64,000 nt of DNA from Fibrobacteria bacterium (GTDB taxonomy: Bacteria > Fibrobacterota > Fibrobacteria > UBA11236): contig JBGTHM010000023.1 of assembly GCA_041746255.1 (NCBI GenBank), positions 15,640 to 79,639 of the forward strand. Reading direction: 5' to 3'. Each line of letters starts with the position of its first letter. The first letter of the stretch is position 1. A program made the position numbers and the translations under genes. Shown here in pieces: positions 1,449-64,000 of the stretch. A model generated the notes under the pieces. The model saw only the letters and a program-made list of their open reading frames with translations, did no database searches and was not told the origin of the DNA.

Positions 1449-2225
1449 ATGACCATTGAACGGTCCCTGGAAGGGCGTAATGCATTGGTGACCGGAGCGG
1501 CCGCAGGTATCGGCTTGGCCTTGTGCCAAGCCCTTGCAGCGCGAGGCGCTTATGTGGTCGGCGCCGATCGCAATCCGGAAATCGAAACCATACTGACCTC
1601 CCAAGGCGTGACCGGGGGACGTGGCGCCATTTGCGATGTTCGGAACGAAGAACAGGTGGCCGAGGCCGTCGCTCTCGCCGCGCGGGATGACCGGTTGGAC
1701 ATCTTGATTTGCAATGCCGGTATCTTCCCATTGGGAGCCCACATCGAAAAGCTTGCCGATGCGGATTGGGACTTGAGCCTGGCCGTCAACCTTACCGGTA
1801 CCATGCGCTTCATGCGCAGGGCCATTCCCTTGTTGCGCAAAGGCAAACAACCCCAAATCGTGGTGATCGGCTCCCGCAACGTCAAGGCTCCGGGTCCCGG
1901 AGCCGCCGCTTATTCGGCCGCCAAGGCGGGTTTGACCCAATTGGCCCGCGTGGCCGCGCTGGAGTTGGCCCCCGACGGAATCAGAGTCAACGTGGTCCAC
2001 CCCGACGCGGTATTCGACACCGCCCTATGGACAGCCGCCGCTTTGGAGCGATCGGCTGAGCGCTACGGGATGAGCGTCGAAGAATACAAACGCCGCAACC
2101 TGATGAAAACCATTATCGGCGCCAGCGATGTAGCCGATGCCGTCTGCGCCCTGCTCGGTCCGGCTTTCGCGAAAACCACGGGGGCGCAAATCCCCGTCGA
2201 CGGCGGAAACGACCGGGTGATTTGA
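1449..2225 (+). CDS. SDR oxidoreductase resembling the dehydrogenase half of bifunctional rhamnulose-1-P aldolase/SDR proteins
   Basis: TGAAAGIG Rossmann motif, CNAG, YSAAK catalytic motif, VHPDAVFDT...KTTGAQIPVDGGNDRVI tail. Confidence 0.85.
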   Translation: MTIERSLEGRNALVTGAAAGIGLALCQALAARGAYVVGADRNPEIETILTSQGVTGGRGAICDVRNEEQVAEAVALAARDDRLDILICNAGIFPLGAHIEKLADADWDLSLAVNLTGTMRFMRRAIPLLRKGKQPQIVVIGSRNVKAPGPGAAAYSAAKAGLTQLARVAALELAPDGIRVNVVHPDAVFDTALWTAAALERSAERYGMSVEEYKRRNLMKTIIGASDVADAVCALLGPAFAKTTGAQIPVDGGNDRVI

Positions 2226-2256
2226 ACCCTTTGTCCCAGTATCACAAGGAGGAATC

Positions 2257-3288
2257 ATGCACGATACCCATTCCGAAACCCTGTTGAAGCGCCCCAAGAA
2301 GGTGCTGAACGATCCGAAAAAAGCCATGGCGGAAATGCTGGAAGGGCTCATCCTGGCCAGCGACGGCAAAACCAAAAAAGTGGAAGGCGCCGACGCGCTC
2401 GTACGCAGCGCAATTCCCGACGGTAAGGTCGCCTTGCTGGTGGGCGGCGGCAGCGGACACGAGCCCCTTTTCCACGGATTCGTGGGCGAGAACATGGCGG
2501 ATGGCGCGGCTTGCGGCAACATTTTCGCCGCTCCTCCTCCCGATGTCATTCTCGCGGCGACCAAAGCCGTGAATCGCGGCGCGGGCGTACTTTATCTTTA
2601 CGGCAACTATGCCGGTGACAATATGAATTTCGATATCGCGGCCGAATTGGCCGAGGCCGAAGGCATCCGGGTCGAAACCGTCCGCATTTGGGACGATGTG
2701 GCTTCGGCTCCGCCGGAGCGTTGCGAAGATAGGCGCGGAATCGCCGGCGACCTGTACGTGATCAAGGCCGTGGGAGGCGCAGCCGCCAAGCTGAAAACCC
2801 TCGACGAAGTGGTAGCCGTGGCCAAGAAAGCCCGGGACAATGTCCGCTCCATGGGCGTGGCGCTGGCAGCGGGTAGCATACCCGAAACCGGCGAACCCAC
2901 TTTCGTGCTTCCCGAAGATGAAATCGAAATCGGCATGGGCGTGCATGGCGAACCCGGTATCTTGCGGCAGAAGCTTGTGCCTGCGGATCAACTGACGACG
3001 CAAATGCTCGACCGTATCCTGGCCGATTTGCCTTTCAAAAAGGGTGACAGCGTGGCCTTGCTCGTCAACAGCCTGGGCGCAACCACCCAAATGGAATGTC
3101 TTATCGTCAATCGCCAGGTTCGCCGCTTGCTCGCCGAGCGGGGCATCTCCGTGCATTGCACCGACGTAGGCGCATACGTGACCTGCCAGGAAATGGCGGG
3201 CTTCTCGCTTTCGCTCATGCGTCTGGATGATGAACTTAAAGAATATTTGAACCTTCCCGCCGATTCGGTGGGATACCGTAAGAGGTGA
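2257..3288 (+). CDS. dhaK: dihydroxyacetone kinase family, substrate-binding subunit (Dak1)
   Basis: GGGSGHEP, NYAGD, RRGIAG and GMGVHGEPG motifs; AGGAGG RBS. Confidence 0.93.
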   Translation: MHDTHSETLLKRPKKVLNDPKKAMAEMLEGLILASDGKTKKVEGADALVRSAIPDGKVALLVGGGSGHEPLFHGFVGENMADGAACGNIFAAPPPDVILAATKAVNRGAGVLYLYGNYAGDNMNFDIAAELAEAEGIRVETVRIWDDVASAPPERCEDRRGIAGDLYVIKAVGGAAAKLKTLDEVVAVAKKARDNVRSMGVALAAGSIPETGEPTFVLPEDEIEIGMGVHGEPGILRQKLVPADQLTTQMLDRILADLPFKKGDSVALLVNSLGATTQMECLIVNRQVRRLLAERGISVHCTDVGAYVTCQEMAGFSLSLMRLDDELKEYLNLPADSVGYRKR

Positions 3289-4332: not shown

Positions 4333-6027
4333 ATGTTACGACGAATGAGGTTGCTGACGCTTTTAATCGCCTTATTAATCGGGACTGTCTACGCGCAGGT
4401 GACCTACCCGGGCTGCAGTAACCTATCTCCGTCCAACTTCAAGCTTGTCAAGATATTGAGTCACAAGGCCTACAATCTTCTTCACCTTCCCGACGGCAAG
4501 TTTCTGTTCACCTCAGGACATTACGGCGAAGGTCCTATTTTCTTGCATGATACCAAGGCGGGAAAAACCACTCAGATTCCGAATTCCAATGCCGAGTGGC
4601 ATGGCTTCGGGTTTTCTCCGGATTTCGCCACCACGGGGTGGATGTATTTTTTCGAGTCGCCCAATAAAGAGACCATGCGGATTTTTCGGCAGACTTACAA
4701 CCAGAGTACCAATACGCTGAGCGCCAAAAAGTTGCTCATGGAGTGGGCCGGCATCAAGGGAGCCGATCATTGCGGAGGCGGCTTCGCCATTGATAAGAAC
4801 GGGAATGTCATCGTCGCCGCCGGCGACAATTCCTTGCATACCGACATGTGGGGTTCGGTCAACGAATCGAGTGAGAAACTCAATTCGTTGCGTACGGCGG
4901 CCAATACGAATAGTCTCATGGGTAAGGTCGTGCGCATCAAACCCATTCCCTTTCCCGATAACCAGTCCCCGGCTCCGGGAGTGGGCAGCACTTATGAAAT
5001 ACCTCCCGGCAATTTGGCGGACGCTTATAAAGTCTCCATGCAATGGTCGGCGGAGGATTTAAAAAAAATCCGTCCCGAGATTTATACCATGGGACACCGC
5101 AATCCCTGGACGCTTTCTTATGATCCCGTTTCGAATTGGATTCTGGAAGGTGAAGTGGGCAACCAAGCGCGCGGTGACGACGCCAAAAAAGGCTCCGTGG
5201 GAGGCGACGAATTCAATTTGATCAAATCGGCCGGGAATTTCGGTTGGCCGATGTTCGTGGGAGCGAACCGTCGGAATAACTTTTATGACTACTCCGGAAA
5301 TAAAATGGGACCCTGGTTCGAAGTCGACGCGCCTAGAAATACATCCAAGTTCAATACCGGGGTGCAATTGCTGCCCCCTCCGAAACCCGCGCTGTTTTTC
5401 CATACCAAAAAAAGCCAGCTCTATCTCATTCAAAAAGGTGATACCGTTCACTACAACGATGACTCCCTATGGGATCCGACACCCGCCAACAACCAGCAAG
5501 CCTGCGTGGCCGGTCCGAGGTATCATTATCGCACCGACGCCACCGACAAGGCCCGTCTGCCTCCGCACCTACATGGCGCCTGGCTAATTTCGGACTATTA
5601 TTTGCAGACCATCAAAGCCCTTCGATTCGATGGAACCGGAGACAATATCGAGGCGGTCCTTCCCGTAGTCGGGGGGCCGGCCAGCATCACGCAGCTGTCG
5701 CTGGATCACCAGGGCGTTCTCTATGTGGCAACAGAAAACCAGGGCTTATCCCGGGTGGAATACACGGGAACCTGCCATCCCGAAATATTGTCCATCGCGT
5801 CCCCTAATAGAACCGGAAATGCCTATGCCCCCGGTTCTCAGCTTATGACCGCGAAGCATTTTCAGCATTGGCGGGCATCCAACACTATATCCGAGGTGAA
5901 AATCCGTGACTTGCAAGGAAAGCTATTGCTTCACAAACAAGTCGCTCCCGGTGAGGCCGCTCTCCAGGATTTCTCGGCCCGTCATCAGGGGTTGTTTCTG
6001 GTGGAAACCTTTTCGAAAGCGAAATAA
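4333..6027 (+). CDS. secreted glucose/sorbosone (PQQ-type) dehydrogenase-family beta-propeller with C-terminal sorting-like domain
   Basis: Signal peptide; HCGGG, GKVVRI, YTMGHRNPW, DEFNLI, GNFGWP motifs; tail IRDLQGK...GLFLV. Confidence 0.8.
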   Translation: MLRRMRLLTLLIALLIGTVYAQVTYPGCSNLSPSNFKLVKILSHKAYNLLHLPDGKFLFTSGHYGEGPIFLHDTKAGKTTQIPNSNAEWHGFGFSPDFATTGWMYFFESPNKETMRIFRQTYNQSTNTLSAKKLLMEWAGIKGADHCGGGFAIDKNGNVIVAAGDNSLHTDMWGSVNESSEKLNSLRTAANTNSLMGKVVRIKPIPFPDNQSPAPGVGSTYEIPPGNLADAYKVSMQWSAEDLKKIRPEIYTMGHRNPWTLSYDPVSNWILEGEVGNQARGDDAKKGSVGGDEFNLIKSAGNFGWPMFVGANRRNNFYDYSGNKMGPWFEVDAPRNTSKFNTGVQLLPPPKPALFFHTKKSQLYLIQKGDTVHYNDDSLWDPTPANNQQACVAGPRYHYRTDATDKARLPPHLHGAWLISDYYLQTIKALRFDGTGDNIEAVLPVVGGPASITQLSLDHQGVLYVATENQGLSRVEYTGTCHPEILSIASPNRTGNAYAPGSQLMTAKHFQHWRASNTISEVKIRDLQGKLLLHKQVAPGEAALQDFSARHQGLFLVETFSKAK

Positions 6028-47985: not shown

Positions 47986-48084
47986 ACTCCGCAAAACCAG
48001 CTTACCGAAATCGCGGTAATTCGAATTTAAATACGTATTCGGTTCGATCGAACGGATTTTTTAGCCGCATTGACGCCGATTTTA

Positions 48085-48147
48085 ATGGACGCCTTTTTGG
48101 ATTGGTTGAACGGCGAGACCAAAACAGACGCAGTATTAAAAGTGGTT
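48085..48147 (+). pseudogene. 63-nt fragment of a Fic/DUF4172 gene
   Basis: 51/63 nt identical to 57898-57960; MDAFLDWLNGETKTDAVLKVV versus MDVFLDWLNGETRTDAVLKAA. Confidence 0.8.
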
Positions 48148-48346
48148 CCTGATGTATCTCCCAGAAAACATTTTCTTTGACAAAGAGGTCTACACCCCGT
48201 AAATACCCCGTACCCAAGCATGTTATTCTTCCGTCCCGGAATTAATTTCTTAAAGAATGTGCTTATAGTCCTACAACCGTGATTTTAACGGGCCTGGTGA
48301 AGGTTATTCTTCACCAAAAATCGGGCCTTATCAAAAAAGAGGCATT

Positions 48347-50020
48347 ATGAATCCAATTTTAGTCGCACTGCTTTTACTCATACCGTATCAAGCCGGAGCA
48401 GCGGCAAAGGTCACCATTGATCCTCAAGATGAGAAGTGGGTTATAAGTAAGTACCTGATCGGAATGCATGCGGTATATACCACCGAACCGGATGCCGTCT
48501 ATGAGGACGACAGTCTCGCCCACTGGGCTAAAAAAGTCGGAGTCGGGGTCTTTCGCTATCCCGGTGGAACAGTTCTGCATCATTGGAACTGGGAAAAACC
48601 AAGTGGTACCTGGTCCTGGACGGGAAGTGCGCCCGAAAAAGACTGGATGAGCCTGGATGAATACCTGCATTTTTGTAAAGTCAGCGGCGCCACTCCGCTA
48701 GTGGGAGTCAATTACAACCATTATTATCAAACCAACGAAGTCGACAGAAGCGCCACGAGCGCCGCGGGGCTGGTCAAATATGTGAAGGATGCTGGATTTC
48801 CCGGGGCGTTCTACTATATCGGAAACGAGCTGGATAGGGTCTTAGGCCCAGCACACAAGGGTTTAGGCGGTATTAAAAATGCCGGACCGGTTTTCGTGAA
48901 ACATTCCAAAGCCATGAAAGCGGTGGACCCCGATATCAAGGTTCTGTATAACTGGAATTTTGAAACGCCCGCATCGCTTAAGGAATGGATGGCTCTGGTT
49001 GGCGACGCTGCCGACGGCGTGGATTTTCATGAAAAATGGCCCGATGAAAGAACCGAAGGCAGCTATGAAATGTGGAAGAAAGAAGTCCCCTTGGTATGGA
49101 ACTACCCACCGGATAAACTGAAAAACATCGGCTTGAATAAGGCGCCTACCTGGCGCGAGAGAATCGAAATGTTAAGGAAAGCGGCGGCGGAAATTGGCCG
49201 GCCCGACATGCTGATGACCAATATCGAGTATGGAATCGGCCCGGACAATACCGGGTTCAATCGATTCACCATGAGCCTCATGTTAATCGACTACCTCCAA
49301 GAACTTTTCATTGCGGGCTATGATATGGGGTCCCATTGGTCCAATACCCGGGCGAAGTTCGATGACGGCATGCTTTTGAACGCGGGAAACAAATGGCGTA
49401 TGAATCCTGTCGGATATGGCTGGGAATTCCTCGGAAGAGCGCAGGGGAAAACCATGATCGGCTTCGAGGCCGACAATAAATTCGTATACGGGTTTGCGGC
49501 CAAGGATTCTTCCGGGGAATACCAGGTATATTTGATGAATAAAACCGAGTCCGTGCAGCCGCTCTCGCTTTCTTTCAAGGGGTCTCCGGCCGACATGGCC
49601 TCCTGGACATCCAGCGCCAAGACCCTGATGGATGGCGATGGCCACTGGGGACTGGTTAACAACCTTGACATAACCTTTAATGCGTCGACTCAATTATTTC
49701 AAGCTACGCTTCCGGCTATGTCCTATAACCAAATACTTTTCAAAAAAGAAAATTCTAGCGCCATAAATGCGTCATCCGGCCTATCACAGAGCCAAGGCGG
49801 CATATTCCTGGTGAGTAAAGCCGGGAAAATCATCATTGAGGCGCCCTCTTCCTCAAAGGTGACCCTTACGACGCTTGCGGGAAAGGTGGTCTTCGAAAAA
49901 TATCTGAAGGAGGCCGGCTCACTGGAAATCGGAAAAGAGAGCGTCGCACGGGGTTTCTACAACGTAAATGTGGTCTCGGGTAGCCAAAGCGTTTCTGAGA
50001 AATCAGTATGGATAAAATAA
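48347..50020 (+). CDS. secreted clan GH-A glycoside hydrolase (GH51/GH79-like), copy 1
   Basis: FRYPGG, YYIGNE, NIEY motifs; T9SS-like tail. Confidence 0.72.
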   Translation: MNPILVALLLLIPYQAGAAAKVTIDPQDEKWVISKYLIGMHAVYTTEPDAVYEDDSLAHWAKKVGVGVFRYPGGTVLHHWNWEKPSGTWSWTGSAPEKDWMSLDEYLHFCKVSGATPLVGVNYNHYYQTNEVDRSATSAAGLVKYVKDAGFPGAFYYIGNELDRVLGPAHKGLGGIKNAGPVFVKHSKAMKAVDPDIKVLYNWNFETPASLKEWMALVGDAADGVDFHEKWPDERTEGSYEMWKKEVPLVWNYPPDKLKNIGLNKAPTWRERIEMLRKAAAEIGRPDMLMTNIEYGIGPDNTGFNRFTMSLMLIDYLQELFIAGYDMGSHWSNTRAKFDDGMLLNAGNKWRMNPVGYGWEFLGRAQGKTMIGFEADNKFVYGFAAKDSSGEYQVYLMNKTESVQPLSLSFKGSPADMASWTSSAKTLMDGDGHWGLVNNLDITFNASTQLFQATLPAMSYNQILFKKENSSAINASSGLSQSQGGIFLVSKAGKIIIEAPSSSKVTLTTLAGKVVFEKYLKEAGSLEIGKESVARGFYNVNVVSGSQSVSEKSVWIK

Positions 50021-51009: not shown

Positions 51010-51058
51010 AATGGATTTTTCCAATCCCTAGGCTTAACCCGTTCCAAAGAGAAAAATC

Positions 51059-52702
51059 ATGAAACTGACATTGCTTGCCCTATCATTGATTTTCTCGTCT
51101 CAAGCTTATGCGGCGGTGAATGTCAAGATCGATCCGAAAAACGAGAAATGGACCATCAGTAAATACCTGATTGGAATGCATGCCGTGTATTCCACCGAGC
51201 CGGATGTAGTCTATAAAGGCGACAGCTTGGCACGTTGGGCGAAAAAAGTGGGCGTCGGAGTTTTTCGCTATCCCGGCGGTACGATCTTGCACCATTGGAA
51301 TTGGGAAAAGCCAAGCGGTCTATGGCAATGGGACGGAAATGCGCCGGAAGAGAACTGGATGAGCCTGGATGAGTACCTGCATTTTTGCAAGGTCAGCGGC
51401 GCGACTCCCCTGGTAGGCGTCAATTACAACCATTATTACCCGGACAGCGTCGACTATAGCGCGGCTAGCGCCGCACGGCTGGTCAAGTATGTAAAAGACA
51501 AAGGTTTTCCCGGCGCCTTTTATTACATCGGAAACGAAATGGACCGGCATGTTTACCTGAAAGGGATAGGTAATTCCGCACGAGTATTCAGACAGCATTC
51601 GCTGGCTATGAAAAAGGTGGATCCGGCCATCAAGGTCCTTTACAACTGGAATTTCGAAACCGCCAGCACTCTGAAAAGATTTATGGAAATCGCCGGTGAC
51701 GCCGCCGATGGCGTGGATTTTCATGAAAAATGGCCCGATGAAAGGACTCCGGGAAGTTATGAAATGTGGAAGAAAGAAGTTCCGTTGATATGGCACTTTG
51801 CCAATGGAGGTCATAATAACCCGACCTGGAGGGAGAGAATTCAGATTTTACGGCAAGCGGCTAAGGAAATTGGCCGTCCCGACATGCTCATGGCCAATAT
51901 CGAATACGGTATCGCTCCGGAAAGTTCCGAAGGATTCAATCGGTTCACCATGAGCTTGATGTTGATCGATTATCTTCAGGAGTTATTCATCGCCAACTAC
52001 GATTTGGGCGCCCATTGGTCCAACACCCGAGCCAAATACGACGACGGCATGCTCATGAACGCGGGAAATAAATGGCGTATGAATCCGGTCGGTTTCGGCT
52101 GGGAATTTCTCGGCAGGGCCCAGGGAAAAACCATGATCGGTTTCGAGTCCGACAATAAATTCGTTTACGGGTTTGCGGCCAAGGACGCAACCGACGAATT
52201 CCAGCTCTACTTGATCAATAAAACAGAATCGCCTCAGCCGCTCACCATTTCTTTCCAGAATGCTCCGGCAGACATCGCTACATGGACCTCCGGCGCCAAA
52301 ACCCTGGTAGACGGCGATAATCACTGGGGCGTGGTCAACAGCCTGAACATATCCTATGATGCCGCGAAAGGAGTTTTCCAAGCCACTATTCCACCGATTT
52401 CTTATAACCAAATTCTATTTAACAAGAGCGGCGCCACCGCAATCGAAACCTCGGCACCCCCGCTAAAAAGTTATGGTGGCTTATCGGTGGTAAAAAACGC
52501 CGGTAAAATATTAATCCATGGCGCTCCCGCTTCCCAGGTTACCGTAACTTCACTTTCCGGCCAAGTCGTTTTTCAGAAACGACTGGAAAAATCCGGGACT
52601 TTGGAATTAGGAAAAGAGAGCCTTGGGCATGGGGTATTTACCGTAAGCGTTGTCTCCGGCGAGCATAGCGTCTCCGAGAAAATCGTATTGCAGGAAAATT
52701 GA
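51059..52702 (+). CDS. secreted clan GH-A glycoside hydrolase, copy 2
   Basis: Long peptide blocks identical to 48347..50020. Confidence 0.72.
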   Translation: MKLTLLALSLIFSSQAYAAVNVKIDPKNEKWTISKYLIGMHAVYSTEPDVVYKGDSLARWAKKVGVGVFRYPGGTILHHWNWEKPSGLWQWDGNAPEENWMSLDEYLHFCKVSGATPLVGVNYNHYYPDSVDYSAASAARLVKYVKDKGFPGAFYYIGNEMDRHVYLKGIGNSARVFRQHSLAMKKVDPAIKVLYNWNFETASTLKRFMEIAGDAADGVDFHEKWPDERTPGSYEMWKKEVPLIWHFANGGHNNPTWRERIQILRQAAKEIGRPDMLMANIEYGIAPESSEGFNRFTMSLMLIDYLQELFIANYDLGAHWSNTRAKYDDGMLMNAGNKWRMNPVGFGWEFLGRAQGKTMIGFESDNKFVYGFAAKDATDEFQLYLINKTESPQPLTISFQNAPADIATWTSGAKTLVDGDNHWGVVNSLNISYDAAKGVFQATIPPISYNQILFNKSGATAIETSAPPLKSYGGLSVVKNAGKILIHGAPASQVTVTSLSGQVVFQKRLEKSGTLELGKESLGHGVFTVSVVSGEHSVSEKIVLQEN

Positions 52703-57378: not shown

Positions 57379-58476
57379 ATGACCAAATACATTTATCAGT
57401 ATGACCAATGGCCCAATCTCAAATGGGATGATCAAGAAATTCAAGTGATTCTAGGCAAAGTCCGTCATTTCCAAGGAAAAATTTCCGGCCAGATGGAGGC
57501 TATGGGATTTTCCCAAAAAGAGGAAACTATGCTTTCCACCTTAACTCTTGATGTCCTTAAATCGTCCGAAATTGAAGGTGAGATATTAAACCAAGAGCAG
57601 GTTCGCTCTTCCATTGCGAGACGATTAGGATTGGATTTCGCCGGGATGGTCAGCGCTGATAGAAGCGTGGAAGGCGTTGTTGAAATGATGCTGGATGCGA
57701 CGCAAAGGTACAACCAACCTCTCGAACATGAGCGGATATTCGGATGGCACGCGGCATTATTTCCCACCGGCTGGAGTGGTATGCACAGGATTGGGACTGG
57801 TCGTTATCGCAATGGCGATATGCAAATAGTTTCCGGGCCAATGGGGAGCGAGAAAGTCCATTACCAGGCTCCACCTCCTGAAATTGTCAAACAGGAAATG
57901 GATGTTTTTTTGGATTGGTTAAACGGGGAAACCAGGACGGATGCAGTATTAAAAGCGGCTATCGCCCACTTTTGGTTCATTATTATCCATCCTTTTGAGG
58001 ACGGCAATGGACGCATTGCAAGAGCGATATCCGATATGTTACTTGCGCGCTCAGAGGAGAGTTCCCAAAGATTTTACAGCCTATCAAATCAAATATTGAC
58101 GGAGAAAAAGATATACTACGAAATTCTACAAAGAGTCCAACATAGCAAGGGTGACATAACCGAATGGTTGGTTTGGTTCCTGAACTGTTTATATCGGGCC
58201 CTGGCTTCAACTGAGGAGACCTTAAATAAAGTCCTGTATAAGGCGGAATTTTGGGATAAACACAGAGAAACCATTTTAAACGGTAGACAACGATTGATGC
58301 TGAACAAAATGTTGGATGGATTTGATGGAAATCTGCAATCTTCAAAATGGGCGAAAATAACGAAGTGTTCCGTAGATACCGCGCTAAGGGATATTAAGGA
58401 TTTGATCGAAAAGGGAGTTTTGCAACAAAAAGAATCCGGGGGAAGAAGTACAAATTATGAATTGACTGGAAAATGA
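57379..58476 (+). CDS. Fic-family protein with N-terminal DUF4172 and C-terminal HTH
   Basis: SSEIEGE inhibitory motif; HPFEDGNGRIAR; DTALRDI...GGRSTNY. Confidence 0.95.
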   Translation: MTKYIYQYDQWPNLKWDDQEIQVILGKVRHFQGKISGQMEAMGFSQKEETMLSTLTLDVLKSSEIEGEILNQEQVRSSIARRLGLDFAGMVSADRSVEGVVEMMLDATQRYNQPLEHERIFGWHAALFPTGWSGMHRIGTGRYRNGDMQIVSGPMGSEKVHYQAPPPEIVKQEMDVFLDWLNGETRTDAVLKAAIAHFWFIIIHPFEDGNGRIARAISDMLLARSEESSQRFYSLSNQILTEKKIYYEILQRVQHSKGDITEWLVWFLNCLYRALASTEETLNKVLYKAEFWDKHRETILNGRQRLMLNKMLDGFDGNLQSSKWAKITKCSVDTALRDIKDLIEKGVLQQKESGGRSTNYELTGK

Positions 58477-58668: not shown

Positions 58669-59928
58669 ATGAAAAAGCTTCCCGTAACCGTACTCTCCGG
58701 CTTTTTGGGCGCCGGCAAAACCACCCTGCTCAACCACGTGCTCAGCAATCGCGAGGGCTTGCGCGTCGCGGTCATCGTGAACGACATGAGCGAAGTGAAT
58801 ATCGACGCCGAACTGGTCAAAAGCGGCGACGGCGCGTTGAGCCGCTCCGAGGAAAAGCTGGTGGAAATGAGCAATGGCTGCATTTGCTGCACCTTGCGCG
58901 AAGACTTGCTCATCGAAGTCTCGAAACTCGCCAAGGAAGGTCGCTTCGATTATCTGCTTATCGAATCGACGGGAATATCCGAGCCGATGCCGGTAGCGGA
59001 AACCTTCACCTTCGCGGACGAAGCGGGGAAAAGCCTTTCCGACGTGGCGAAGCTGGATGCCATGGTGACGGTGGTTGACGCCGTGGCCTTTCTACTCGAA
59101 TACGAAAACAGCGACAGCCTACAGGAAAGGTCCATGGCTCTCGGCGAAGACGACGACCGGACCATCGCCGATCTCTTAATCGACCAAATTGAATTCGCGG
59201 ATATTCTGGTGCTCAACAAATTGGATATGGTTTCGGAAGCGGCGAAAAACAAACTCACGGCCATCTTTAAATCCTTAAACCCCCAGGCCAAGGTATTGGA
59301 GTCCACCTACGGGCGGGTTCCGCTCCAGGAAATTCTCGACACCGGCCTTTTCAGCATGGAGAAAGCGGCGCGCGCCCCTGGCTGGTTGGCGGAGTTGCGT
59401 GGCGAACATATTCCCGAAAGCGAGGAATACGGCATCCGCAGTTTCGTCTACCGCGCCAAAAGGCCTTTCCATCCCGAACGTTATTGGGATTTAATGCATG
59501 AGGGATGGGACCAGGTGTTACGCTCCAAAGGTTTTTTCTGGCTGGCGACGCGCATGGACATCACCGGCTTGTGGTCGCAGGCGGGAGGCTCGGCTCAATA
59601 CCGGGCCAACGGTTATTGGTGGGCGGTATTGGACGAAGCCAATTGGCCCGAAGACGAAGCCACGCGAGCCAACATCCGTAAGCTCATCGGCGGTGAGTTC
59701 GGAGACCGCCGCCAGGAGATGGTTTTCATCGGCGTAAACATGGACGAGACGGGCATTCGCGCCGACTTGGACAAGTGTCTGCTGACGGATGAGGAAATGG
59801 CGCTGGGTGAAGAGGGGTGGAGCGGGTTTTCGGATCCGTTTCCAGCCTGGGAGGAGGAAATTGAGGAGGAGTTGGATGAAGAAATGGAGGAGGAAATAAT
59901 TGAAAGCTCTCCAATGAGCGCGGGGTAA
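58669..59928 (+). CDS. COG0523 (CobW/YciC/ZigA-type) zinc metallochaperone GTPase
   Basis: [15 protein letters not shown] (CxCC), [22 protein letters not shown]; acidic tail. Confidence 0.95.
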
Positions 59929-60713
59929 CAGCAGTTAGCCATACCCTTACTCAAAATAGAACCTTCATTACTGCCTAAAAAAACAAACCAATCTTTTGCT
60001 GCGCAAAAAAACAGGTCGGTCGGGCGAAACCGTTTTTACGGAAAAGGCGATATATTGGGACATGATCCAGAACAGCCATTGTTCCCCATTTTCTCTACAT
60101 CCGACTGTTAAGAGTAGGGATGTAACCAGTATATATCCTAGGCCTGCTGCATCCGCAAGTTCCTGGAAAAAGTATGCATAGAAAGACGGATAAATGTATG
60201 CATTTCAGGGATTGCATTCCACCCATCCACATACGTAAATCCAAGCTAGGCGGACGTTAAGGAGAGTTTAATTCAATCCCAACAAAACAACTTCGAGGTT
60301 TATATGGAGTGCACGGCTCCGCCATCCATTTCCGGGCACCAACAGACATAGCCCCCTCAAATCGTGATTTCAAGTAAATGGTACCGTATCCTGGATGAAA
60401 CTGGGCTCAAAAAAGGGGGAAAAACCAAAAATTGAAGGTTAGGCGGTTCTCTGGTTTCAGGCGGGGGTTAATTACCTTTTGTGATCTATGGCGAAATTTT
60501 GTGCGTCTTTGATGCCAAAGGACGAACAAATCTACGCCATAGATCTAGTTGAACAAAGCCGCTACGCGGCAGTTTATCGTGCCAACTGTCCCACTTTGGC
60601 TCTTTTAATCAATGCCTTTTGGCTGAAATAGCCATCCTCTATTCGAAGCTATTTTCCGAATAACCCGAATCAGTTAAAATTTTCTGTTCACCTTCACCAC
60701 AAGGAGAACAGAC

Positions 60714-61586
60714 ATGACACTCTTAAGACAGCAATTCACTCAAGCGCTGGAGCTCCGTGGCTTCTCGCCCCATACCATTAATAATTATATCCTCGCTGTT
60801 GCCCGCCTCAGCCGGCGCTATGGAAAATCACCTGATACGATCAGTGACCAAGAAGTTCGCGAGCACATCCTCCACCTGAAATCCGAAGGTATCTCCGCAG
60901 CCACTTGCAACTTGCATATGGCGGCCATCAAGTCATTTTTCAAATCATGCCTTCCGGAGCGGCCCAATCCAGTTGGCCTCACCAGCATGAAAGCTCCCAA
61001 GCACCTGCCGGTTGTGCTGAGCTTGGATGAAACCATCCGCCTACTCACCTGCGCGGTCAATCCTAAACACCGGGCGCTTTTGAGCATCATCTACTCGGCC
61101 GGGCTCAGGCTGAGCGAAGCCATACATCTACGACCCGCCGATATTGATAGTCACCGGATGCGCATCCATGTCCGGGAGGGTAAGGGTGGAAAGGATAGGT
61201 ACACGCTGCTTGCCGGACCCGTGCTGGAGACGCTTCGGGAGTATTACCGCTGCTACCGGCCCGAAACCTGGTTGTTCGAAGGACGACACCGGGGCATGCC
61301 GATGAGTCCGCGCAACGTGGATGCGACGCTCAAACGCTGCGCCAGGCGCGCCCGCTTGGGCAAGCGGGTAACGGTGCACACGCTTCGGCACAGCTTCGCT
61401 ACCCATCTTCTGGAAGCCGGGCAGCCTCTGCAGGTTATACAAAGTCTGCTGGGCCACCGGAACATTAAGACGACCACTATCTACACGCACGTGACCGACA
61501 GGATGATGGCGGACCTGCGGAGCCCCCTGGAAGCTTTCACCCTTACCCCGAATCGTGCTAAGGAACAGGGGGCCGAGCATGACTGA
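60714..61586 (+). CDS. tyrosine recombinase/integrase with SAM-like N-terminal domain
   Basis: Complete catalytic set: GLRLSE, GKGGKDR, HTLRH, LGH, TTIYTH; AAGGAG RBS. Confidence 0.95.
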   Translation: MTLLRQQFTQALELRGFSPHTINNYILAVARLSRRYGKSPDTISDQEVREHILHLKSEGISAATCNLHMAAIKSFFKSCLPERPNPVGLTSMKAPKHLPVVLSLDETIRLLTCAVNPKHRALLSIIYSAGLRLSEAIHLRPADIDSHRMRIHVREGKGGKDRYTLLAGPVLETLREYYRCYRPETWLFEGRHRGMPMSPRNVDATLKRCARRARLGKRVTVHTLRHSFATHLLEAGQPLQVIQSLLGHRNIKTTTIYTHVTDRMMADLRSPLEAFTLTPNRAKEQGAEHD

Positions 61587-62805
61587 GAAGATTGCGGAAA
61601 GGAAACGTGGATTGGAAGTGGCGGAAGTCTTCTCGAGGGGCATGGCAGCCTATGCCAAAAACCACGGACCGCTTCCTCCCGCACATTGGAAGGTGGTGAA
61701 CGCCCTGGAACGCTGCCGCACGGCCGCAATGGGCGGGCACTCCTACAAGTGCGGGAACTGCGATTACGAAAAACAAGTCTACAACTCCTGCCGCAACCGG
61801 CACTGCCCCAAGTGCCAGGGATTGGCCCGGCTCAAGTGGGTGCAGGCAAGGATGGAGGAACTCCTGCCCGTAGAATATTTCCACGTAGTGTTAACCATGC
61901 CGGCCGAGCTCAACGCATTCGCCCTTCGAAACAAGGCGGCGTTCTACGACCTGCTTCAAAAAAGCGTGGCGGATACGCTTCTTTCATTATCGCGCGATCC
62001 GAAGCGCTTGGGTGCGGAGATAGGTTTCATCTCCGTACTGCACACCTGGGGTCAGAACATGATGGACCATCCGCACGTCCACTGCATCGTTCCCGCAGGC
62101 GGCTTGGAGGACGGCGTTCGATGGAAATCCCTCAAGGGCAAGTTTCTATTTCCGTTCAAAGTGATGTCATCGCTGTTCAAGGGCAAAATGTTAAGCGGGT
62201 TCAAACGGGCTGTGGAAAAAGGCGATATCCGCTTCCACGGCCACCTCGAGCAATACACCGACCCGGCACGGTGGAAGGCATATCTCGACGGCTTGTATGC
62301 GAAGAACTGGGTCGCCTACTGCAAGCCACCTTTCGCCGGGGCCGGTCAGGTCCTCAAATACCTAGGCGGTTACACGCACCGCATGGCCATCTCTAACCAC
62401 CGCATTGTCTCCATCGACGAAAACACCGTCCGTTTCAGATGGCGCAGCTATGCCGACGGTGGAAAGACCAAGGTGATGACGCTCGCGCATAAGGAATTCA
62501 TCCGGCGCTTCTTGTTGCATGTACTGCCTAAGGGATTTCAGCGCATCCGGTACTATGGATTCCTTGCCAACTGCAAGCGGAAAAAGGCATTGGGACGCTG
62601 CCGTGAAATCTTGTCTGCCAAGGTAAAGGATCCCGCTCCTGAAAAGGACATGTCCTCCGAAAAAGCCGGACAATGCGATCTTGTTAGCCTGTTCAAGAGT
62701 GTGTTCCACATCGACCTCACTTTTTGTCCAAAGTGCCGTAACAGGACGGTAAGCCCGACCTTCCCTCCGGCTCATGTACGTTACTCAAGAGGTGTTTTCA
62801 GGTGA
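61579..62805 (+). CDS. IS91-family rolling-circle transposase (HUH, Y2)
   Basis: Zn domain CRT...C..C...YNSCRNRHCPKC; LHTWG; HPHVH (HUH); YLGGY (YxxxY); RIRYYGFL; overlaps the integrase stop by 8 nt. Confidence 0.95.
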   Translation: MTEKIAERKRGLEVAEVFSRGMAAYAKNHGPLPPAHWKVVNALERCRTAAMGGHSYKCGNCDYEKQVYNSCRNRHCPKCQGLARLKWVQARMEELLPVEYFHVVLTMPAELNAFALRNKAAFYDLLQKSVADTLLSLSRDPKRLGAEIGFISVLHTWGQNMMDHPHVHCIVPAGGLEDGVRWKSLKGKFLFPFKVMSSLFKGKMLSGFKRAVEKGDIRFHGHLEQYTDPARWKAYLDGLYAKNWVAYCKPPFAGAGQVLKYLGGYTHRMAISNHRIVSIDENTVRFRWRSYADGGKTKVMTLAHKEFIRRFLLHVLPKGFQRIRYYGFLANCKRKKALGRCREILSAKVKDPAPEKDMSSEKAGQCDLVSLFKSVFHIDLTFCPKCRNRTVSPTFPPAHVRYSRGVFR

Positions 62806-63192
62806 GATGATTACTGTCCATGTATGCCAGAACGGGTCCCAAGCTAAAGGGAGGTTTCCATCCTATGCTTGATGGGCTGGAAATGCCATTTTTAAGTGAT
62901 TTTTTAATATTTTTCACAAGATATGAAACGGTCATTTAACCTAATATTCGTGTTTATCCGTCTACAGCCAGGCATCCGCAACGGCCAAAGCCCTCGATCA
63001 AACCCCATAGGGCGGCACCTCACCCCCGCGGCTTCGTTCAACTAAATTATTTCTACAATGCGGCACCAGAAGCGCCTATTTTTGAGCCTGTGGCAGGCAT
63101 TGCAGAAATAATCCTTAACGTTATGCAATGCTTGAGCCAATTTATCAGAATGCGCGCCTAAAACAGAAATCAAAAACTAAATTCAAAATACC

Positions 63193-63696
63193 ATGAATAT
63201 CCAATCTGAAAACTTAACTGATGGAACTATTCAATTAATCCCTCTTAGGGAACAGGATTTTGATGCTCTTTTTTCAGTCGCCTCCGATCCTCTAATTTGG
63301 GAACAGCATCCGAACAGCAACCGGTATCTGAAGGAAGAATTCTTGAAATTCTTCCAAGGGGCGATTGAATCCAAGGGTGCATTCAAAATAATTGACTGCA
63401 AAACTCAGGAGCCCTTGGGCTCAAGTCGGTATTACGATGTAGATATGCAGGAAAAGTCAGTCTTCATTGGATACACTTTCCTTCGGAGGGACAAATGGGG
63501 AGGAAACTACAATGCTCGTTTAAAGGCATTGATGATAAACCATGCCTTTCAATTTGTGAACAAGACCTATTTCCAAATTGCGACTACCAATATGAGATCT
63601 CTTCGGGGCACTGAGAAAATAGGGGCAACAATAGTCGGTACCCAAATTCTTGAAGGAATCGAGCATTTTGTTTTGGAAATGCAAAAGGAAAATTAA
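63193..63696 (+). CDS. GNAT (RimJ/RimL-like) N-acetyltransferase, cassette-like
   Basis: LIPL...DPLIW...IGYTFL...N.RS...EKIGA; visibly more AT-rich than flanking core genes. Confidence 0.88.
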   Translation: MNIQSENLTDGTIQLIPLREQDFDALFSVASDPLIWEQHPNSNRYLKEEFLKFFQGAIESKGAFKIIDCKTQEPLGSSRYYDVDMQEKSVFIGYTFLRRDKWGGNYNARLKALMINHAFQFVNKTYFQIATTNMRSLRGTEKIGATIVGTQILEGIEHFVLEMQKEN

Positions 63697-63736
63697 TACG
63701 GCGCGCTTAAAAATAATTGTGGAGGGCTCAAGCACA

Positions 63737-63988
63737 GCTTACAACAACGCACAGGGTGCTCCGCACGGGACAAGCCCGTGCTCCGGGGCTTCGCCCAAAT
63801 TGGTTTTGGGGTAAGCCCGGCAATTCAAAGGGCATCCTCACGGCGCCCGCTAAGGCGGGCTTGTTCCGGTGCTCCTTTTCATTGCGTGTTGCGGGCGAGC
63901 ATTCTGGGGGTCAAAGACCCCACTCCATGCTCGTCCTCACACATCGGGCTAACCCCAAAACCAACTTCACCCTCCGCTGACGTTATAC
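63737..63988 (+). repeat. about 250-nt branched palindromic attC-like site
   Basis: TACAAC...GTTATAC outer boxes, AGGGTG/CACCCT inner boxes, 20-bp stem 63800-63819/63945-63964, several internal hairpins. Confidence 0.7.
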
Positions 63989-64000
63989 AACATGCTGCCT

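Follow-up and report, generated by a model that had tools for sequence, protein, structure and literature searches.

An IS91-family element with an upstream tyrosine recombinase and an attC-like fold predicted at its joined ends

The window, a 64,000-nucleotide (nt) stretch of contig JBGTHM010000023.1 from a Fibrobacteria bacterium, holds, as judged from its sequence, a single and apparently intact IS91-family element of the subgroup that carries a tyrosine recombinase gene upstream of the transposase gene. The family and the pairing of these two genes are known; the ends, the boundaries and the targets are worked out here. When modelled as joined, the two ends fold on the R''-L''-loop-L'-R' plan known from the attC sites of integrons; the junction falls within GTT, in the region of G^TT (the caret marks a break), and the site is placed after the genes as it is in a gene cassette. 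These features provide the basis for a tentative model, which we regard as possible rather than probable, in which the elements are self-mobilising integron cassettes: the IS91 transposase would provide a single-stranded circle, and a recombinase resembling the integron integrase IntI, but without its characteristic insertion, would integrate the attC-like junction at GTT, with a preference for hairpin sites.

Genes and boundaries of the element

The element and the structures at its ends are arranged as follows, in coordinates of the window.

60483-60545, no strand assigned: left-flank hairpin; target DNA outside the element, as judged from the unrelated left flanks of copies of the same element
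60548-60562, plus strand: left inverted repeat GTTGAACAAAGCCGC; boundary G60548^T60549; its GTTGAAC matches the integron core GTTRRRY
60558-60570, plus strand: small subterminal palindrome GCCGC-TAC-GCGGC, 10 nt from the element end; counterpart of the IS91 terIS palindrome
60714-61586, plus strand: tyrosine recombinase gene, 290 amino acids (aa), IntI/XerA-like; Pfam Phage_integrase, 1.2e-36
61579-62805, plus strand: IS91-family HUH/Y2 transposase gene, 408 aa; 8-nt overlap with the stop codon region of the recombinase gene
63003-63012, plus strand: conserved CCCATAG-type box that precedes the right repeat by about 25-45 nt; similar boxes (CCATAG or CCTATA) at the equivalent place in relatives
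63028-63042, plus strand: right inverted repeat GCGGCTTCGTTCAAC, subterminal; its GTTCAAC matches RYYYAAC; partner of the left repeat over 13 bp when the circle junction is modelled
63046-63112, plus strand: right hairpin, an internal conserved structural module 8 nt from the element end; multi-copy homology spans it
63113-63122, plus strand: spacer CCTTAAC followed by G63120^TT; right boundary, with GTT common to both boundaries

The transposase matches NF033538, the NCBIfam equivalog for IS91, with 438.5 bits (cut-off 125) over model positions 1-355 of 356, and also Pfam Y2_Tnp (2.2e-63) and Zn_Tnp_IS91 (2.6e-31); HPHVH and YLGGY motifs are visible in its translation, as expected of the HUH/Y2 rolling-circle transposase that marks the IS91 family. 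The recombinase has all of the catalytic motifs (R-K-H-R-H-Y, present as R, K, HxxR, H and Y), and its best matches in the PDB are XerA (4a8e) and IntI4 (2a3v). It scores 206 bits with the NCBIfam XerA model (cut-off 220) and 194.6 bits with TIGR02249, the integron-integrase model (cut-off 265), and the latter match is split in two, leaving out model positions 178-236, where the IntI-specific insertion lies; by score and by its lack of the insertion, it is not an IntI. In IntI, the insertion touches extrahelical bases of attC. These scores and matches agree with the placement by Smyshlyaev et al. (10.1101/542381), who unite IS91-element recombinases and IntI in one subgroup, 'Integron-like', that lacks the IntI insertion. 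The two genes are adjacent, co-oriented and part of one mobile unit, so that the window element is a member of the IS91 elements with an upstream tyrosine recombinase, in which the same two-gene unit is described (PMC9208149, 10.1101/542381) and of which 245 'IS91 - XerD' couples from 15 phyla were already known (PMC9208149). A protein search of the phylum with the transposase, covering 296 genomes, found relatives in 16, most of which have an open reading frame (ORF) of about 300 aa directly upstream; in most, an upstream ORF of recombinase length (285-385 aa) abuts or overlaps that of the transposase. We take ISAzo26, ISWz1 and ISSod25 to be ISfinder names for IS91 elements with an upstream recombinase. 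In the window's own genome the element has one copy, 880 nt from a contig end; a scan of genome contigs with the transposase, which found one locus only, was superseded by the phylum search and a DNA pattern search.

The boundaries were defined from four sets of copies within single genomes: L007, L020 and L025 in genome G291, two types in genome G040 (type A, L026, L028 and L030; type B, L009 and L021), and L105 and L114, which lie on one chromosome. In all four sets, homology starts 0-2 nt from the G of the left GTTGAAC, runs about 80 nt beyond the right GTTCAAC and across the hairpin, and ends 0-3 nt after GTT; the multi-copy units measure 2.5-2.6 kb. Two tandem copies, L080 and L081, are spaced by 2,508 base pairs (bp), and their junction contains TTAATGGTTGAAC; the join reads hairpin-GCTTAATGGTTGAACAAA with a single GTT, which means that the right GTT and the left GTT are the same three bases. 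The search pattern itself prescribed the G at the left boundary, and the boundaries fall within GTT, where G^TT, GT^T and GTT^ are indistinguishable by sequence. Carried over to the window, they delimit an element of 2,572 bp at 60549-63120, which reads G^TTGAAC at the left and CCTTAACG^TT at the right. The right hairpin therefore lies inside the element, the right repeat is subterminal and the left hairpin is flanking DNA; in annotation, the right end belongs about 80 nt beyond the right inverted repeat. A right end at the CCCATAG box (about 63012), considered because the G291 element ends in a similar way, was dropped because the right repeat and the hairpin are inside the multi-copy homology; the box may be an oriIS-type transposase site.

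A sequence-only reading of this DNA had described a 17-bp pair of true terminal inverted repeats, each abutting a hairpin unrelated in sequence to the other, with the two hairpins as equivalent, structure-defined ends and the right one ending 7 nt before GTT. The repeats are there, with 16 of 17 positions complementary between 60546-60562 and 63028-63044, and a repeat search lengthens the arms to 20 nt at 90% (60543-60562 and 63028-63047). Repeat search and folding likewise recovered both hairpins outside the repeats, with no sequence in common. The left one (60483-60545) has 28-nt arms that are 82% complementary and folds as single-stranded DNA with -20.6 kcal/mol (z -7.45; equalled by 0 of 200 shuffles). 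The right one (63046-63112) has 16-nt arms that are 94% complementary and, taken alone, is weak, with -13.4 kcal/mol on the plus strand (z -1.89; 7 of 200 shuffles as good) and -15.6 kcal/mol on the minus strand (z -2.62; 1 of 200 as good); it does end 7 nt (CCTTAAC) before G63120-TT. What changed is the role of these parts. The left repeat is terminal as described; the right one lies 78 nt inside the true right end. The right hairpin is a conserved end module; the left one is target DNA, since copies in the same genome share the right hairpin and have unrelated left flanks, and the equivalence of the two hairpins has to be given up. The case for repeats and hairpins beyond chance lies in their conservation among relatives rather than in the single copy of the window.

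The end module and its joined form

The left-end 25-mer, with three free positions, was found in at least 123 contig stretches. Among the matches listed are Acidobacteriota, Bacteroidota, several proteobacterial classes, Fibrobacterota, Elusimicrobia, Verrucomicrobia, Latescibacterota and others, and many of those listed lie 40-200 nt from a contig end, as a repeat would. The small palindrome is retained in relatives as GCCGC-N3-GCGGC. At the right, the relatives have a common end module that consists of GTTCAAC, 0-4 nt, a hairpin, 4-8 nt and G^TT, in which the stem sequences differ and the pairing is kept. Loci of sufficient length gave 27 distinct full-length candidates. An automated rule (a right repeat, then a hairpin of at least 10 pairs that starts 0-6 nt after GTTCAAC and ends 4-10 nt before GTT) was passed by 16 of these, and L011, L013 and L028 show the same layout by eye. 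Seven others have decayed or consist of a solo left end with no transposase (L059, L060, L078, L117, L083, L108 and L095), and L071 has both genes and an unrecognisable right end. The module is thus present in 19 of the 20 intact distinct relatives with both genes. Alignment of the flanks of relatives was the check that the sequence-only reading had proposed, and its outcome was divided: repeat and right hairpin recur in these 19 of 20, and the boundaries map elsewhere than that reading had placed them.

In 22 non-redundant hairpins, stem positions 1-7 are Watson-Crick paired in 20-22 of the 22, with 3-5 base combinations at each position when mismatches are counted; the outermost stem pair is paired by construction, the detection rule demanded a GTT after the hairpin, and the relatives are not independent of one another. 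Most of the z-scores of these hairpins lie between -3 and -8 against mononucleotide shuffles. The same layout is found in a relative on a Bradyrhizobium plasmid, whose transposase is 49% identical and whose two genes are annotated as 'site-specific integrase' and 'IS91 family transposase'. Its boxes, TTGGACGAACCCGC and GCGGCTTCGTCCAA, are changed and still complementary, having co-varied to TTGGAC and GTCCAAC, with a boundary A^TT; a hairpin follows the boxes, and ATT stands at both ends.

Four of these seven loci (L059, L060, L078 and L117, on contigs of public metagenome-assembled genomes) have the exact 25-nt left-end motif followed by DNA without a recombinase or transposase homologue; they could be solo ends, remnants of decayed copies, or units that are not autonomous and share this end. 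In Thermoanaerobaculia, several loci (L052, L063, L073, L135 and L164 among them) have left flanks with a common end, GGAGAAGATCA(A/T)CTGTAG, directly before GTTGAAC and differ further upstream; the motif may mark either a favoured target or, within this sub-lineage, a left end of greater length.

The joined form of the ends was modelled as a circle junction of the window copy. In this model, 13 pairs form between 63028-63041 and 60549-60562, followed by an internal loop and the right hairpin, with a stability of -26.7 kcal/mol for the top strand and -32.3 kcal/mol for the bottom strand. When random 30-mers were joined instead, 1 of 300 was as stable. The natural tandem junction at L080 has an equivalent fold (-38.3 kcal/mol). 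The joined ends have a GTTCAAC/GTTGAAC repeat stem of 13-15 bp, an asymmetric internal loop and a hairpin. RYYYAAC is the inverse core of integron sites, and an attC site is recognised by pairing RYYYAAC and GTTRRRY boxes around an imperfect inner hairpin; the joined ends have both. The likeness to attC that the sequence-only reading had suspected therefore stands, with GTTCAAC fitting RYYYAAC, GTTGAAC fitting GTTRRRY and the junction falling within G^TT. Integron crossover takes place between the first and second base of GTTRRRY, and it is the bottom strand that folds (PMC8876359). A search of 59900-64000 against Rfam at E<=1 matched no family.

Insertion sites and genomic setting

Insertion sites were compared through 107 non-redundant left flanks. 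Their proximal 80 nt fold with a mean of -11.0 kcal/mol, versus -8.5 and -7.6 kcal/mol in distal controls (Wilcoxon p 0.002 and 2.6e-5). Stems of at least 10 bp with at most one mismatch end within 8 nt of the left boundary in 20 of the 107 flanks versus 9 of 388 control GTT sites in the same flanks, an enrichment of about eight-fold. Where the abutting stem has at least 9 bp (26 flanks), an AAC lies 2-10 nt upstream of the hairpin in 13, which compares with a chance of about 0.13 per flank by an arithmetic estimate made with no control set; in 4 of these 13 the site belongs to a second copy, as its right end. Genome G256 is from the same family as the source; its relative L015 lies inverted and directly against a copy of the structured repeat with which the window closes (see below), and the insertion point corresponds to AA^C at 63744^63745 of the window (alignment score 80; shuffle maximum 28). 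There is an A at position -8 in 63 of 107 left flanks, a bias that partly homologous Thermoanaerobaculia flanks may cause. At the other end, 16 of 20 right flanks have a purine directly behind TT.

Read on the minus strand, the left hairpin of the window resembles an attC-type body behind an element-derived GTTCAA^C, and it could be an attC-type target site. Its assignment as a full attC was given up, the pairing of the modelled empty site being at chance level, and it is best classed as a hairpin beside GTT. Searches for an empty site among the 31 other genomes of the family gave no match to the left flank (59900-60560) and, for the right flank (63100-63720), a 144-nt piece in a single genome and no empty allele. 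Contigs of three sequencing runs showed no joint at either element end and no circle junction, a result that is uninformative on mobility; the stretch was found in one run only, possibly the source of the assembly, with a read depth of about 10 across the element, equal to that of the flanks. The joints listed from the reads lie at conserved zinc-finger codons of the IS91 genes of other organisms.

Two features follow the element on its right side.

63193-63696, plus strand: GNAT acetyltransferase gene (Pfam Acetyltransf_3, 2e-13), in a cassette-like unit that starts at TTATGC (63121)
63739-63990, plus strand: structured repeat of about 245 nt that ends GACG^TTATAC and belongs to an attC-like repeat family of the source genome

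The structured repeat at the window end folds with -73.4 kcal/mol and has no Rfam match. At least eight further copies or fragments lie elsewhere in the genome, on contigs C18 (51186-51356), C37 (67-237), C36 (14270-14518), C31 (2687-2949, 5113-5191 and 8678-8769) and C67 (1-135) among others, and reads cover it 3-5 times as deeply as the flanks. Full copies extend from ACAA^C to ACG^TT, with the conserved ends ACAA^C-AACGC and CACCCTCCGC-NNAC-G^TT, and one copy follows the GNAT gene. The repeat is probably the unusually long attC of this lineage. Since the right boundary of the element, ACG^TTATGCAA, resembles the end of the repeat, ACG^TTATACAA, the element may sit at a cassette boundary. 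The genome also encodes a true integron integrase IntI at C56:27174-28109 on the minus strand, about 1.1 kb from the contig end (TIGR02249, 371-374 bits; cut-off 265), and its cassettes are probably dispersed among several contigs, each broken off at a structured repeat. On the other side of IntI, C56 holds a 114-aa ORF and then ends. The recombinase of the element is 31% identical to this IntI, 32% identical to a Xer-like protein and 41% identical to another IntI-like recombinase, which likewise has no IntI insertion and is encoded at C18:48713-49939 on the plus strand. The C18 locus has no IS91 transposase and no GTTGAAC end motif; it has two small ORFs and a structured repeat at the contig end, and may be an integron-like platform with a non-IntI recombinase. 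Matches to IntI (E<=1e-60) were found in 6 of the 16 phylum genomes with a transposase relative versus 52 of the 280 others, counts to be read with the incompleteness of the genomes in mind; the element family is not bound to integrons.

Some further features may be recorded. In genome G251, of the same family, contig C17 encodes a distant transposase relative (1963-2970, minus strand; 33% identity) 1.6 kb from an IntI (4583-5512, plus strand). The 10-mer GGCTCAAGCA occurs inverted around the GNAT gene of the window (63131-63140 and 63724-63733), each time 9-11 nt before an AAC box, and local alignment of this pair scored no higher than shuffles. Two paralogous genes of about 550 aa lie 2.7 kb apart at 48331-50020 and 51043-52702, with 71-82% DNA identity over most of their length. 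A Fic/DOC-family gene (57379-58476; DUF4172 and Fic) precedes a cobW-like GTPase gene, and a 62-nt stretch of it (57897-57958) recurs about 9.8 kb upstream (48084-48145, 82% identity).

Known systems and possible routes of movement

Canonical IS91 elements, in the account of PMC13181058, have two different ends, with one or two subterminal palindromes at oriIS and one beside the terIS cleavage site; they cause no target duplication, use a target tetranucleotide like that at terIS, and form circles with an ori-ter junction. The window element shares with the classical group (IS91, IS801, IS1294, IS1294b and the ISCR relatives; PMC13181058) the HUH/Y2 transposase with its zinc-binding N-terminus, the lack of target duplication, a subterminal palindrome at each end (63046-63112 and 60558-60570, in the places of oriIS and terIS), a short word shared by the target and the far end, and the orientation of the ends relative to tnpA. 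Its ends do differ, the large hairpin being found only at the right and the small palindrome only at the left. Unlike classical IS91, it has inverted repeats of 15-17 bp, a difference that the sequence-only reading had noted correctly and that is conserved in relatives, as well as a tyrosine recombinase gene overlapping tnpA from upstream and attC-like joined ends. Its shared word is also GTT/YAAC rather than the GTTC/CTTG of IS91; the right-end word is GTT(R), or YAAC on the other strand, in 16 of 20, with no duplication beyond the shared GTT.

Like integron cassettes, the elements have genes followed by a folded site with RYYYAAC and GTTRRRY around an imperfect hairpin, a junction within GTT, tandem arrays and a recombinase of the IntI-like clade. 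Unlike cassettes, they encode their own recombinase, without the IntI insertion, and a transposase; their R stem is 13-15 bp rather than the 7 bp of attC, the spacers are 0-4 and 4-8 nt, and most insertions lie outside integrons. Elements that target attC include the IS1111-attC group, with a DEDD transposase, and the group IIC-attC introns, with a reverse transcriptase. The elements described here share with these a preference for hairpin recombination sites, seen in a minority of insertions and in G256, and differ from them in their enzymes and in that the ends of IS1111-attC elements and group IIC-attC introns are not known to mimic attC. An association of group IIC introns with integrons is described in PMC7923331. 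IS200/IS605 elements, which move by a single-strand 'peel and paste' mechanism with a Y1 HUH enzyme and subterminal hairpins (PMC5027513), are alike in having an HUH enzyme, hairpin-defined ends, a short target word and a single-stranded circular intermediate, the last being proposed here for our elements; they differ in having Y1 rather than Y2 and no recombinase or inverted repeats. A literature survey whose coverage stopped short of ISfinder, TnPedia and subscription journals returned no account of the boundaries, end module, attC-like joined form or hairpin preference of recombinase-bearing IS91 elements.

From the anatomy, which alone is observed, we infer each enzymatic step of a two-enzyme pathway, to which we give an even chance of being right. 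An HUH enzyme would make a single-stranded circle, and the IntI-like recombinase would insert its folded junction at GTT. The HUH/Y2 transposase would nick one strand and peel off, or copy, a single-stranded circle, as in IS91, for which such a circle is documented (PMC13181058). The circle junction would then fold into an attC-like site, and the recombinase would exchange one strand between this site and a target GTT, with preference for a GTT behind a hairpin, for example an attC site or the end of another copy. Replication would complete the insertion without duplication of the target. In favour of the pathway stand the two genes, the boundaries, the right-end module, the fold of the joined ends, the pattern of targets and the co-varied boxes of the Bradyrhizobium relative, all as described above. 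Several observations weigh against it. The recombinase lacks the insertion of about 59 positions found in IntI and falls under both the IntI and the XerA cut-offs. Classical IS91 elements, as PMC13181058 describes them, transpose without any recombinase, and breaks at G^TT, by the recombinase rule, cannot be separated by sequence from breaks after AAC on the other strand, by the HUH rule. The hairpin preference concerns a minority of insertions, 87 of the 107 left flanks having no stem of at least 10 bp, and in the modelled empty site of the window, pairing across the junction is no better than with random 40-mers (210 of 300 as stable). Finally, L009 and L021 in G040 are 98% identical, occupy different sites and have a common in-frame stop in the recombinase gene; L009 is additionally frameshifted.

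The last of these points would be expected if the HUH transposase alone moved the element by ordinary IS91 rolling-circle transposition with YAAC as the target, an explanation that we consider unlikely overall and nevertheless a serious contender. On the strand complementary to the genes, the right end would be oriIS, with the right hairpin as its subterminal palindrome and preceded by YAAC, and the left end would be terIS, GCCGC-N3-GCGGC followed by CAAC; the recombinase would be an accessory that resolves tandems and cointegrates or has a regulatory part, with the inverted repeats as its binding sites. All canonical IS91 features (PMC13181058) do map onto the element once GTTC is replaced by YAAC, 16 of 20 right flanks have TAAC or CAAC as their complement, which matches the purine found behind TT, and the finding of a neighbouring hairpin in only 20 of 107 insertions also speaks for transposition of this kind. 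It gives, however, no reason for inverted repeats of 15-17 bp, which are absent from classical IS91 in the description of PMC13181058, and it leaves unexplained the fit to RYYYAAC and GTTRRRY, the covariation of the repeats in Bradyrhizobium and the intact catalytic recombinase of nearly every relative; the eight-fold enrichment of abutting hairpins would require an extra assumption. The shared stop of L009 and L021, for its part, could be explained by complementation in trans, since L026, L028 and L030 in the same genome have an uninterrupted upstream ORF of recombinase length (300 aa), a candidate recombinase gene.

Could the element instead be a passenger, a gene cassette moved by the host IntI at C56:27174-28109, with the attC-like end serving that enzyme? 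The genome does encode a true IntI (371 bits against a cut-off of 265), the element immediately precedes the cassette-like GNAT unit, which closes with an attC-like repeat, and the boxes match the integron consensus. Yet 10 of the 16 phylum genomes with a transposase relative have no IntI match at E<=1e-60, with the caveat of incomplete genomes, the same left end is found in many phyla, and the element's own recombinase is intact; we consider this highly improbable. Less probable still is the arrangement that the sequence-only reading had proposed, in which each hairpin forms an end of the element and the right one may serve as a primary, attI-like insertion site; the GNAT unit would then be a cassette captured there. 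The layout of the window is indeed mirror-like, with GTTCAAC, 2-3 nt, a hairpin, 7 nt and GT(T/A) on either side, and the cassette-like unit begins exactly at the right G^TT. The mirror layout can be traced to the near-palindromic left repeat, by which any hairpin behind the insertion point mimics a second end module. The left and right flanks of copies of the same element are unrelated, and a hairpin is found at the left in 20 of 107. In particular, the right flanks of L105 and L114, copies of the same element in a single genome, are unrelated, which fits transposition of the element and not cassette capture and leaves the attI-like role without support.

IS91-type elements and integrons are both major movers of accessory genes, resistance genes included, via single-stranded DNA, and they are usually treated as unrelated. 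The subgroup considered here ranges from bacteria of hot springs to plasmids of rhizobia. In it an IS91 transposase is paired with a recombinase of the kind most closely related to integron integrases, and the ends of the elements resemble an attC site. If its recombinase acts on the folded junction, as the two-enzyme pathway supposes, this would be a second, integron-independent use of folded-DNA recombination; it would explain the presence of such elements in cassette arrays and would offer a simple two-protein system for testing attC-type recognition without the IntI-specific domain. If the elements are self-mobilising cassettes, they would be a living link between rolling-circle transposons and integrons, a candidate model for the origin of the IntI/attC system, and a hidden route by which cassette arrays are invaded or rearranged in many phyla.

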